Assembly: GCA_038891095.1 (NCBI GenBank)
Contig: JAWAEV010000003.1
Coordinates: 31,629-95,628, forward strand
DNA length: 64,000 bases
Direction of reading: 5' to 3'
From: Candidatus Altiarchaeota archaeon
GTDB lineage: Archaea > Altiarchaeota > Altiarchaeia > IMC4 > QMZM01
Shown here one piece after another: positions 7,491 to 11,701 of this stretch (its first letter is position 1; every line of letters starts with the position of its first letter). Below the pieces are notes generated by a model. It worked only from the letters and a program-made list of their open reading frames with translations, did not search any database and was not told the DNA's origin. The translations under genes and the position numbers were made by a program.

Positions 7491-8645
7491 TCAATTATAA
7501 TTATTCAAAATCGAAATTATTTGTCTTTGGCATACTGGGCAGAAATGCCAAATAGAACGTGTTCTCATAAGACAGTTATTCTCTGTTGCCCTATATAGAT
7601 TTCTATAACTGCAAATGGGATAGCATCCAGTTCCAGGAGTTCCTACCCATTTTGAGCATGAAGGTTCAGTATCACAATTTGCACCTGAGTAATACAAAGA
7701 ACCCATTTCACCATAATCATACTCATCCATCAACAAGCCAATATGATGGCCACCGCATTCATGAATACTCAACCAAGGATATGCATGAGATGAAACACAG
7801 TAAGGTGAAGATGACATACTTTCTCCACCTGCGCCAGCCCATTCATTACTTTTGAATAGCACAACTATGTTATCGTGAGGACATTCAGATGCCAAGGTTA
7901 TCACCTTAGCACTATTACAAAGAATTGACCTATCATATGCAAGGTGGCACTCAAGGTCCTCAAATTTATTTACGTAATGTACGTTAATCTTATTCCTATA
8001 AGAGCTATAAGGTGCAGTGTTCAAGAGAGCATTCATATGTTCTTGTACCTTAGAAATAAAAATCCCTAATTCTGAGGAATCATAATCATCGCCAACAAAA
8101 ACAATATCTAATTTATTTGAAGGATCACCATTATTTAAGATAGTAACGCAGTGAGTTGTAAAAATTGTAGTTGTTGAACTTAGGGGAGGAGTTGATGTAA
8201 CTATTGTTGAGCTTGTTGATATAGGTGTGCTAGTTGTGGCATAACTTGTTGTAGTTGTTGACCAAGTCAATGCAGTTGTCCAAAGAATCGTAGTGGTTGT
8301 AGATTTTGGTGGTGGTGGGCAATTACATTTAAACTCCTTGACATCTCCGCCTTCAATCAGAAAATTTACTAATGGGCAGGCAATTAAAATGAAAATCAAT
8401 ACAACTATAGCATATTTGATTCTTTTTTTCGCTTCTTCTCTTTCATACATATCCTCGTTTGTAAACAGTTTAACTCCAGAGAGAATAATTATCAAGGCAA
8501 CAATTCCAGCAATAATGAACATAATCAAGCAATAACATACAAGAATCCAATAATTCAAATGCGAAGAAATTTTTTCTTCAGGACTTTGAGCAAAAGCTAA
8601 ACTTGAAATTACAAAGATAAATAAAATTAAATTTTTATTTTCCAT
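7491..8645 (-). CDS. Pilin-like (TrbC/VirB2-type) membrane domain + Thr/Ser stalk + peptidase M64 domain
   Basis: Two-TM hairpin IAGIVALIIILSG..F......REEAKKRI.YAIV.LI; Thr-rich linker; NNGDPSNKLDIVFVGDDY, HECGGH..GL.DEY, CLMR, FCPVC; ATG at 8645 preferred. Confidence 0.82.
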   Translation of the reverse strand: MENKNLILFIFVISSLAFAQSPEEKISSHLNYWILVCYCLIMFIIAGIVALIIILSGVKLFTNEDMYEREEAKKRIKYAIVVLIFILIACPLVNFLIEGGDVKEFKCNCPPPPKSTTTTILWTTALTWSTTTTSYATTSTPISTSSTIVTSTPPLSSTTTIFTTHCVTILNNGDPSNKLDIVFVGDDYDSSELGIFISKVQEHMNALLNTAPYSSYRNKINVHYVNKFEDLECHLAYDRSILCNSAKVITLASECPHDNIVVLFKSNEWAGAGGESMSSSPYCVSSHAYPWLSIHECGGHHIGLLMDEYDYGEMGSLYYSGANCDTEPSCSKWVGTPGTGCYPICSYRNLYRATENNCLMRTRSIWHFCPVCQRQIISILNNYN

Positions 8646-9879
8646 AGGTTTCATCAAAAATCCTCAAAAGTTGATTGTATTTTGCTGTTCTTTCACCTCT
8701 GCAAGGAGCACCTGCCTTTATAAATTTTGCCCCTAGGCCAACACAAAAGTCAGCTATGAATGAATCTTCAGTTTCACCAGAGCGATGCGAAACCATAACT
8801 TGCCAATTATTTTCTTTAGCAATTTTAAATGCTCTAATAGCTTCAGAAATTGTTCCAATTTGATTTATCTTCAAAAGCAAAGAGTTGCAAGCTTTCATAT
8901 GAATTGCTTTTTCTATTCTCGAAACATTTGTAACAAGAAGGTCATCTCCAATAATGTTGATTTCTTTACCAAATTTTTTATTAAATTCAATCCAACTTTG
9001 CCAGTCATCTTGCGCAAATGGATCTTCAAATGAAATTATACAATATTGATCAAGCAAAAGTCTATACTTCTCTATTAATTCTTGCGGCCATAGTGAATTT
9101 CCTTCAACAAGGTACTTACCTTCATTAAAAAATTCTGATGCTGCACAATCCAACCCAAGTTTTATCTTATCCTCATAACCTAAGTCTTCTAAAACATGCG
9201 TTATTAACTCTAAAGGTTCATCAATCTTCCTCATTGGAGGAGCAAAACCACCTTCATCACCAACATTTATTGCTGTTTTACCATAACGTTCTACTATAAA
9301 CTCTTTCAGATTTTGATAAGCTTCGACACAAATTCTTATTCTTTCCCTAAAATTTTCCTCCTCAATTGGAATTATCATATATTCTTGAAAATCTAAGCTG
9401 TTACCAGCATGTTTGCCGCCATTGATAATATTCATTGCTGGAATTGGTAGTGAGAAAATTTCATTATTTGCTAATGCACCAATATATTTGTATAGGGGCA
9501 CTCCTTGTTCAATTGCTGCAATTTTTACAGTAGCAGTACTCACGCTAAGAATAGCATTTGCTCCTAAATTTGATTTATTTTCAGTTCCATCAAGTTCTAT
9601 AAGCAACTTATCAATTTCTTCTTGGTTTCTACAATCTAAACCAACAATTTTTTTTGCAATGACATCATTTACATTTTTTACAGCTTTTAAAACACCTCTA
9701 CCATTAAATCTATCATCTTTGTCTCTTAACTCAACTGCTTCATGTATTCCAGTTGAGGCACCAGATGGAACATCCGCTATTGCAAAATTTTTTTCTGTTC
9801 GAATTTCAACCTCTACTGTTGGATTACCACGAGAATCAAGTATCTCTCTAGCTTTTATTTTTTTAATTTGAAAATCCAC
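8635..9879 (-). CDS. eno: Enolase
   Basis: EILDSRGNPTVE, VPSGASTG, GDEGGFAP, LLKINQIGT, SHRSGET, RTAKYNQL. Confidence 0.98.
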   Translation of the reverse strand: MDFQIKKIKAREILDSRGNPTVEVEIRTEKNFAIADVPSGASTGIHEAVELRDKDDRFNGRGVLKAVKNVNDVIAKKIVGLDCRNQEEIDKLLIELDGTENKSNLGANAILSVSTATVKIAAIEQGVPLYKYIGALANNEIFSLPIPAMNIINGGKHAGNSLDFQEYMIIPIEEENFRERIRICVEAYQNLKEFIVERYGKTAINVGDEGGFAPPMRKIDEPLELITHVLEDLGYEDKIKLGLDCAASEFFNEGKYLVEGNSLWPQELIEKYRLLLDQYCIISFEDPFAQDDWQSWIEFNKKFGKEINIIGDDLLVTNVSRIEKAIHMKACNSLLLKINQIGTISEAIRAFKIAKENNWQVMVSHRSGETEDSFIADFCVGLGAKFIKAGAPCRGERTAKYNQLLRIFDETYGK

Positions 9880-9962
9880 TTTGAATTTTATATTTATTCA
9901 TTTATCAAATGAATTTATAAATCTTTTTTAGTTTTATAGTTATAATGCATTAAATATTAATT

Positions 9963-10039
9963 ACCCCCTCATAGGGTCACCTATGCTGAGAGATGACATA
10001 GTTATATAGATCAATGAAACTTGGAGTTAATGAGGGGGT
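9963..10039. ncRNA. Candidate structured ncRNA of unassigned class
   Basis: Perfect 10-bp closing stem ACCCCCTCAT/ATGAGGGGGT with internal hairpins, in an otherwise very AT-rich intergenic region. Confidence 0.45.
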
Positions 10040-10277
10040 CATAATAGCTCTATATTCTTAAAATTCAAGAGTACTATGAAAACTTTTTTCTAATAACATT
10101 TTGTTTATCTTTTTAGAAATACACAAATGAAAAAGCATAGTGATAATACAACTGGTCAACCTAATGAAAAATAATATGGAAACCAAGAATAGTAAAATTC
10201 AAATAATCAAAATGAAAATGAAATATAATAAGTAATTAAGAAGATTGGAAAATTATAAACTTAACTCTAAATTTAAA

Positions 10278-11507
10278 ATGTTCATTGGTATTGATGATAC
10301 TGATTCAAGAAAAGGTGGTTGCACAACATATATTGCTGCTTTACTATGTGAAAAACTTAAAGTTGTTGGTTATCCAAAGCTGATTCGTTTAAATCCAAAT
10401 ATCCCTTTTAAAACTCGTGGCAATGGTGCCATCTCTCTTAAAATTTTTAATGATGATAAAAAGGCCAAAGAAATTGTTCTTGAAACAGTTGAGAAATTTT
10501 CAAAATTTCCAGATGATGACACAAATCCAGGAGTTGTTTTTCTTTCTGATATAAATTTCAGAAAAAATAAAAAAACCTTAGAAAAATTTTACTTGAAAGC
10601 AGTTTCAGAATTAGTAACAATGAAAGAAGCAGAGAAAATTGCAAAAAAAATAAATGCTGAAGTTTACAAATTCAAGAATGGCAGAGGTATTATTGGAGCA
10701 TTAGCTGCAATAGGTTCAGAATTAGAAAATGATAAAACTTACGAGCTTTTATCTTATAGAATTCCTGAAAATTATGGAAAAAAAAGAAAAATTTTTAATA
10801 ACTCTATTTTTGAGATGAATGAAAGGACATTTCCTGAAACTTTTGACAATATTGATTTTGAGACAGGAGAGATAAGAATATTACCTCATGGCTATGATCC
10901 TGTTTTCTGTGGCATAAGAGGTGAAACTCCAAATGCAGTTGAAAGTGCTTGGAAAATTTTAAAACCTTTGGAGAAAATTGAGAGGATTCAAATTTTCGAA
11001 ACAAATCAAGCAACTGATGCTCATCTAAGAGAAAAAAAAATTTCAAATATAAAGCCTTATGATTGCGTTGTCATTGATGCAATAGTAAGAAAAAAACCAA
11101 AGAAAATCTCTGGAGGTCATGTTATCTTCGAAATTGATGATGGCACCGGAAAAATTGATTGTGCAGCATATAAAAAAACTGGTAATTTTAGGGATTTAGT
11201 AATGAAATTAACTTCTGGAGACAAAATAAGAGTTTTTGGAGGAGTTGCAAAATACATAAAAACAATAAATTTAGAAAAACTTAAAATTTTAAAATTGAAA
11301 AAAATTTTCAAAAAAGAAAAACCATATTGCTGCGGGAGGGTTATGACATCTGCTGGAAAAAACAAAGGTTATAAATGTAGAAAATGTGGTAAACGAGCAA
11401 TTAAAGATAAAATTTTAGAGCTTAAGAGAGATTTAAATCTTGGCTTTTATGAAGTCGCAGTTAGAGCAAGAAGACATATAGCAAAACCTCTTATTAGAAT
11501 GAAGTGA
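10278..11507 (+). CDS. tiaS: tRNA(Ile2) agmatinylcytidine synthetase
   Basis: IGIDDTDS.KGGCTTY, LIRLNPNIPFKTRGNGA, GRGIIGALAA, TNQATD, OB fold, C-terminal zinc ribbon; ATG at 10278 preferred. Confidence 0.96.
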   Translation: MFIGIDDTDSRKGGCTTYIAALLCEKLKVVGYPKLIRLNPNIPFKTRGNGAISLKIFNDDKKAKEIVLETVEKFSKFPDDDTNPGVVFLSDINFRKNKKTLEKFYLKAVSELVTMKEAEKIAKKINAEVYKFKNGRGIIGALAAIGSELENDKTYELLSYRIPENYGKKRKIFNNSIFEMNERTFPETFDNIDFETGEIRILPHGYDPVFCGIRGETPNAVESAWKILKPLEKIERIQIFETNQATDAHLREKKISNIKPYDCVVIDAIVRKKPKKISGGHVIFEIDDGTGKIDCAAYKKTGNFRDLVMKLTSGDKIRVFGGVAKYIKTINLEKLKILKLKKIFKKEKPYCCGRVMTSAGKNKGYKCRKCGKRAIKDKILELKRDLNLGFYEVAVRARRHIAKPLIRMK

Positions 11508-11592: not shown

Positions 11593-11701
11593 CGGACCCG
11601 GCGGGATTTGAACCCGCGACCTCCGGATTTCTTCCATATTTCTTCTAAAAGAAAATTTTAGCTAGAAGTCCGGTGCCCCGTCCAGGCTAGGCTACGGGCC
11701 C
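11593..11701 (-). tRNA. tRNA-Arg(TCT) with 34-nt intron (11629-11662) at position 37/38
   Basis: GGGCCCG acceptor stem, anticodon arm CCGGA-CT-TCT-A[intron]A-TCCGG, T arm GCGGGTTCAAATCCCGC; intron GAAG pairs with CTTC (BHB). Confidence 0.95.

Follow-up and report, generated by a model that had tools for sequence, protein, structure and literature searches.

A conserved small RNA beside the enolase gene of an Altiarchaeota genome, a probable box H/ACA guide for helix 69 of 23S rRNA

The locus and its small RNA gene

The window, the whole 64,000-nt stretch of DNA analysed here, carries an enolase gene on the minus strand (8635-9879) and an open reading frame (ORF) on the plus strand (10245-11507). 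Between the enolase start and this ORF lies a perfect 10-bp stem, 9963-9972 paired with 10030-10039, inside AT-rich DNA. An earlier note made from the sequence letters had placed an orphan structured element here, between eno and tiaS. The enolase identity is backed by similarity to relatives, the downstream ORF is present, and the sequence features listed in the note can all be found in the window. The 10-bp stem forms the lower stem of an RNA gene of ~80 nt on the plus strand, which extends over 9963-10046 according to covariance-model matches, its ends being approximate. One copy of the element was found when the 0.96-Mb host genome, which is 93.65% complete, was searched with it. Four DNA metagenome runs of one study also contain the element DNA, and no RNA run is listed with it.

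The conservation of the element is sharply delimited. When the intergenic region was compared by BLAST with 40 relatives, the matches were confined to the element and showed 73-79% identity in several genera. Two covariance models were used, R1, which was built from nine copies, and R2, a second model with the full structure; they score the window at 9962-10045 (+) with 85 bits and 74.6 bits, respectively. R1 identified one copy each in 18 of the 22 family genomes and in 38 of the 49 order genomes, among them 13 of 13 high-quality ones. With R2, one copy per genome was found in 48 of the 61 genomes of the class, and in all 13 that are of high quality. The lower stem is 9-10 bp long in relatives and co-varies strongly: across 31 aligned copies 95% of its cells are paired, and seven of nine pairs show compensatory changes on both sides. 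This covariation score was reached in none of 500 shuffles, and the signal vanishes when the partners are slid by 1-3 columns. The fold-energy z-score is only modestly unusual (-2.0 on the plus strand and -3.0 on the minus strand). The non-chance nature of the element is shown by its conservation, not by its folding energy. The small RNA suggested in the earlier note is therefore upheld as a structured RNA gene rather than a coding or DNA-level feature, and the homologue search and covariation analysis proposed there find the stem conserved in relatives.

A reading as a repeat or mobile element was rejected, the element being single-copy in its own genome. A second, partial copy was seen in one relative, ~300 nt downstream of the full copy (G010:C5:9605-9682, equivalent to L046:1805-1882). 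Only the 3' half agrees with the full copy; with an unrelated sequence in the 5' half, the lower stem cannot form. This partial copy could stem from a truncated duplication or from faulty assembly. A tRNA-like reading was also discarded, as ARAGORN finds no tRNA at the element. Farther along the window, Rfam calls a 109-nt tRNA at 11593-11701 (-) with 53 bits, which is absent from the ARAGORN output and probably carries an intron.

The G-U and U-G pairs of the lower stem would be A-C mismatches if read on the other strand; therefore the RNA is read from the plus strand. The strand, which had been left unresolved before, is fixed as plus by these stem G-U pairs together with the 3' ACA and the upstream TATA-like box. 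In the window this box is TTTTATA at 9932-9938. The aligned upstream flanks of 29 copies give the consensus ATATTTA for it, ~25-31 nt upstream of the lower stem, and it presumably serves as a promoter. The flanks of the element are otherwise unconserved. A run of six Ts at 10084-10089 could act as an archaeal terminator, and T-runs are found downstream of the element in several relatives.

Architecture of the hairpin

The alignments show four conserved blocks inside the lower stem. The two strands of this stem, P1a (9963-9972) and P1b (10030-10039), enclose two short single strands, PS1 (AGGGUCA, 9973-9979) and PS2 (GUUA, 10026-10029), which face each other as an internal loop. The upper stem is built from P2a (9980-9987) and P2b (10018-10025). 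It is irregular, with 69% of cells paired and changes on both sides at four of eight pairs in the 31 copies, and it is weak in the window, where standard pairs occur at five of eight positions only.

A kink-turn (K-turn) tops the upper stem. Its non-bulged strand is the GA at 9988-9989 (positions 2n and 1n), and its other strand, 10013-10017, consists of the 3-nt bulge AAU followed by GA (1b and 2b) and belongs to the conserved block (U)C-N-R-U-G-A. Of 49 copies, 38 have GA opposite GA with a 3-nt bulge on the 3' strand; the GA of that strand is present in all 49, and a single copy lacks the A at 1n. The distal (C) helix and the apical hairpin follow at 9990-10012, beginning with the pairs G9990-C10012 and A9991-U10011; this C-stem is GA/UC in 33 of 49 copies. 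Between the conserved blocks of the distal region, both sequence and length vary. The more distant genera have just a plain hairpin in this part, and hence the GA/GA K-turn of 9988-9989 and 10016-10017 is the universal one. The earlier note had seen a K-loop elsewhere, in CTGA-GAG-ATGA, but the CUGA is unconserved and the kink-turn that is conserved pairs the two GAs across the 3-nt bulge.

The 3' end carries an ANA box at 10041-10043. The aligned place is occupied by ACA in 42 of 49 copies and by AUA in three, the window among them; the four copies without an ANA there (L105, L108, L109 and L113) are distant ones. The distance from the first PS2 base to the box is 15 nt in the window and 14 nt in most relatives.

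These parts can be compared with the archaeal box H/ACA guide RNAs as described in portions of two papers, PMC2377435 and PMC7075261. The lower stem of such RNAs has at least 7 bp (PMC2377435), and that of the window has 10 bp. The ANA box lies 15 +/- 1 residues from the target U (PMC7075261), and the ACA box spacing in archaea is given as 14-15 nt (PMC2377435); the boxes of the window (15 nt) and of most relatives (14 nt) fall within 14-16 nt of the pocket top. Variants of the form ANA are counted as ACA boxes (PMC7075261). The upper stem of archaeal H/ACA RNAs holds a K-turn or K-loop, the distal G:A pair of which stands 9-10 positions from the P2 base (PMC7075261), as does the distal K-turn G:A pair in the window. 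Finally, pairing between guide and target requires at least 8 bp (PMC7075261), and the pocket formed by PS2 (4 bp) and PS1 (7 bp) can make 11 bp with helix 69 of 23S rRNA around an unpaired U-N. The element, as judged at the level of sequence, thus shows every feature of an archaeal H/ACA guide. It is very probably an unannotated, ordinary archaeal box H/ACA guide RNA, most likely for the pseudouridylation of a helix 69 uridine. Several points speak against this assignment: the upper stem of the window copy is weak, the PS2 pairing with the target is just 4 bp, the box of the window is AUA rather than ACA and stands one nucleotide further out, Rfam scores for the copy are low, Gar1 was not found in the host genome, and four distant copies have no ANA at the aligned place. 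The weak upper stem and the AUA box could affect the activity of this copy; typical single-hairpin guides are reported not to need an ACA box, and AUA serves in sR-h45 (PMC7075261). The description of the element as an orphan fitting no family must accordingly be given up. Among the family echoes heard in it, the one of H/ACA RNAs, including the 3' ATA at 10041-10043, has proved sound, and those of TPP and hammerhead elements find no Rfam support.

Rfam was scanned at E <= 10 with both strands of 9700-10400, and at gathering scores with the window in full. The scans gave no clean match for the window, whose copy lies below the threshold of every family; the best overlapping match, to SNORD25 (14.3 bits, E = 6.8), is unrelated. 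A box C/D sRNA, in which terminal C (RUGAUGA) and D (CUGA) boxes flank guides of 12 nt, was rejected as a candidate, since SNORD25 is the only C/D-family match and the position of the window CUGA varies in relatives. A riboswitch (TPP, fluoride or others) and a hammerhead were rejected likewise, there being no Rfam match to them in either scan.

Predicted target, partner proteins and alternative readings

The target was sought with a pattern of 13 nt in window coordinates, made of the reverse complement of PS2, a U, any base and the reverse complement of PS1. In the 0.96-Mb genome, both strands counted, it has a single exact site, C1:65488 (-), where 0.10 is expected by base composition. The site lies inside the 23S rRNA (C1:64455-67373, -), and the chance expectation for the 4.4 kb of rRNA is 2.3e-4. 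It is the loop of helix 69, recognizable from the succession of a G-run, UAAC, U-A-U-G and ACCC. PS2 is complementary to the 4 nt directly 5' of the target U; after the unpaired U-N come the 7 nt complementary to PS1. Where the upper stem starts, the loop U-A-U-G keeps two residues free of pairing, its first U and the A next to it. Its second U finds a partner in the A that ends PS1, and therefore the geometry is that of a typical guide with a single target. The most likely target, to judge from the complementarity, is a helix 69 uridine that is universally conserved in the large ribosomal RNA. U1940 of Haloferax volcanii, which we take to be U1915 of Escherichia coli, provides the reference position. 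In H. volcanii, UAUG occupies 1940-1943, with GGG at 1932-1934 and CCC at 1945-1947 (PMC7075261); because the helix 69 layout of the host matches this arrangement, the unpaired target U is the counterpart of U1940.

The helix 69 stretch could be recovered from 28 of the 30 genomes that match a 23S probe, and 26 of these 28 relatives have the identical stretch. The guide strands are preserved along with it. Full pairing of PS1 and PS2 with helix 69, over 7 + 4 positions, is seen in 32 of 49 copies, and in 47 of 49 at least 10 of the 11 positions pair. Taken singly, PS1 pairs at 6-7 of its 7 positions in 47 of 49 copies and PS2 at all four in 45 of 49. In some copies a U replaces a C in PS1, producing a G-U pair beside the second loop U.

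In two genomes, G032 (L096) and G048 (L091), the target U of the 23S rRNA helix 69 is replaced by C. Neither gives a match to the guide model, even at E <= 10 with lax filters. Among the genomes that keep the target U, the guide is found in 24 of 26, G011 and G022 being without a match. The co-absence of guide and target U in G032 and G048, two incomplete genomes (85% and 82% complete), is suggestive only; guide and target U may have disappeared jointly in two lineages. That these genomes had lost the machinery altogether was rejected as an explanation, since Cbf5 was found in both and Nop10 in G048; Nop10 was not found in G032, nor Gar1 in either. A separate observation concerns the 23S rRNA genes of two other relatives, in which the match is split just 3' of helix 69 (G007:C83:6804-7270 and G008:C170:16447-17343), with gaps of ~258 and ~690 nt. 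These splits are probably rRNA introns.

Of the four core proteins with which such a guide would act (Cbf5, Nop10, L7Ae and Gar1), three are encoded in the host genome. It has Nop10 (63 bits), a Cbf5-type protein (DKCLD domain, in a 326-aa frame) and two proteins of the L7Ae family, and the Cbf5, Nop10 and L7Ae matches are above the Pfam cut-offs. Gar1 (PF04410) was not found in the host genome even at E <= 10. It was detected in 46 of the 61 class genomes, in 22 of them above the cut-off; the host may have a gene that escaped detection through divergence, or one that falls in the ~6% of the genome missing from the assembly. An H/ACA guide will not surprise the specialist, because one is expected wherever Cbf5, Nop10 and L7Ae are present.

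In the mechanism we propose, a single-hairpin sRNA would be transcribed on the plus strand from its own TATA-box promoter. To go by the solved archaeal RNP as presented in parts of PMC7075261, Cbf5 would bind the lower stem and the ANA box and L7Ae the kink-turn of the upper stem, and Nop10 would bridge the two. By sequence, the target U would be flanked by two guide-target duplexes, one of 4 bp with GUUA on its 5' side and one of 7 bp with AGGGUCA on its 3' side. Cbf5 would then convert the unpaired U to pseudouridine.

The element could instead be an H/ACA RNA with another output, modifying the second U of U-A-U-G, both Us, or a different RNA substrate. Stem-loop 2 of sR-h45 is a precedent in that it makes both Psi1940 and Psi1942 from one pocket (PMC7075261). 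The class copies with U for C in PS1, moreover, have a G-U pair next to the second U, and as many as 52 genome sites fit the pocket when wobble pairs are allowed. On the other hand, the second U is paired with the last PS1 A and only U-A is left unpaired, as is typical, and an engineered "1940 guide" of the same single-target geometry gave only Psi1940 (PMC7075261). Helix 69 is also the sole exact match in the genome, and we regard a different output as quite unlikely.

A cis-regulatory role, as a riboswitch or leader for enolase or the downstream gene, would use alternative hairpins as the switch. The element is indeed intergenic between two divergent genes, and enolase is the divergent neighbour of the guide in 16 of 30 relatives' loci, which belong to several families. 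The switch-like pairings of the earlier note also exist in the window, as CATAGG-GTCA-CCTATG (9970-9985) and as CTATG (9981-9985) with CATAG (9997-10001), but neither helix shows covariation. In the 31 copies CATAGG/CCTATG is 62.5% paired and CTATG/CATAG 29.1%, values at least equalled in 448 and 399 of 500 shuffles, respectively. Two further proposals fared similarly: the TGAC needed for a pseudoknot with GTCA is present at 9994-9997 and the weak TCAA/TTGG hairpin at 10011-10024, yet both are peculiar to the host genome and do not covary. No riboswitch family matches, the RNA has its own TATA-like box and 3' ACA, and the counterpart of the downstream ORF (10245-11507) adjoins the guide in none of the 30 relatives' loci. 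With the RNA strand opposite to enolase, the linkage does not look like that of a leader; it suggests instead a gene order that has been retained, or a promoter region shared by two divergent genes. Regulation of a neighbouring gene in cis is thus very improbable. We give as little credence to a DNA-level element. The perfect 10-bp inverted repeat, set in AT-rich DNA, would suit a recombination site, a palindrome bound by a protein or the inverted repeats of a mobile element; however, there is one occurrence per genome, the stems with their G-U pairs hold on one strand only, and the interior is conserved and complementary to rRNA while the flanks, except for the promoter box, are not conserved.

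The distal part of the presumed H/ACA guide contains a second GA...GA motif, which is found in 28 of 49 copies and is absent from the more distant genera with their plain hairpin. In the window, GA at 9995-9996 faces GA at 10009-10010, with a 3-nt bulge at 9992-9994. The order of parts is the C-stem (G9990-A9991 / U10011-C10012), the bulge, the GA...GA and then a short capped helix. The motif may be a second K-turn, oppositely oriented, or a helix with tandem mismatches. We know of no H/ACA RNA with two back-to-back kink-turns. That two of them, sharing a 2-bp helix, are present in this guide, and, as a separate matter, that guide and target U were co-lost in two lineages, we consider rather doubtful. 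If both K-turns do form, they could offer a second L7Ae site, or represent mutually exclusive folds that tune RNP assembly.

Relation to known helix 69 guides

RNA-guided pseudouridylation of the conserved helix 69 loop is known from H/ACA snoRNAs of yeast and human, for example snR191. These snoRNAs have two hairpins with H and ACA boxes, use Nhp2 instead of L7Ae and lack a K-turn. The window RNA would share with them the guided pseudouridylation of the same loop but differs in having one hairpin with a K-turn.

Closer counterparts exist in archaea. When seventeen short loci with distant copies were scanned with Rfam, six matches to RF00064 HgcG (Pab40) were obtained, all sub-threshold at 14-23 bits against a gathering score of 77 bits. 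The matches cover the third hairpin of HgcG (model positions ~200-268) or hairpins 2-3. The Rfam scan recommended in the earlier note thus returned no clean match for the window, which has no HgcG match at E <= 10, and led to a known family through its distant relatives. The window RNA itself stands outside RF00064, being one hairpin as opposed to a three-hairpin architecture and below the gathering threshold. In the P. abyssi 23S rRNA, stem-loop 69 has two highly conserved pseudouridines; one of them, Psi2016, is guided by motif 3 of Pab40, and the same target was proposed for motif 3 of Afu4 and Pf7 (PMC2377435). The window RNA therefore has the same predicted target as motif 3 of Pab40, Pf7 and Afu-4 (RF00064; Pyrococcus, Archaeoglobus). 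The likeness extends to the HgcG consensus, which has near-identical pocket strands (GGGUUA, seen in some class copies, and GUUA), a GA...GAUGA kink-turn and a 3' ACA. There are also differences: the window RNA is a stand-alone hairpin with its own promoter, whereas Pab40 motif 3 is the last unit of a three-hairpin RNA, and most class copies have the extra GA...GA in the apical stem. The likeness may reflect common descent or convergence, which are not separable here because the shared target constrains the sequence.

The other counterpart is stem-loop 2 of H. volcanii sR-h45, which likewise combines a K-turn and an ACA box in one H/ACA hairpin and acts on the helix 69 U-A-U-G at 1940-1943 (PMC7075261). 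sR-h45 differs in being a double hairpin, and its stem-loop 2 leaves UNUN unpaired and yields two pseudouridines, Psi1940 and Psi1942, from a single pocket (PMC7075261). The geometry of the window RNA resembles that of the engineered "1940 guide" from the same paper instead.

The window RNA is thus predicted to be a stand-alone, single-hairpin counterpart of a known guide. It would follow that a helix 69 guide, which forms a unit of a multi-hairpin RNA in Pyrococcus and Haloferax, can also exist as a hairpin on its own. The "orphan" structured island can now be named as a gene, and its predicted product, a helix 69 pseudouridine, can be tested for. The covariance model covers an H/ACA guide family that current Rfam thresholds miss, and since this family spans a whole class of small-genome uncultured archaea, the model improves the annotation of those genomes. 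Literature searches gave no match joining Altiarchaeota, ACA and pseudouridine, nor one jointly for H/ACA, helix 69, archaea and 23S rRNA. The available portion of PMC4652768 mentions Nanoarchaeum twice and contains no mention of helix 69, H69, DPANN or 1915.

A possible variation on the stand-alone form concerns one family of the class, f9. In four of its loci (L105, L108, L109 and L114) the HgcG alignments extend 5' of the hairpin, over model positions 109-276, and in L109 an ACA directly precedes the hairpin. The helix 69 guide of this family may be the last unit of a multi-hairpin RNA.
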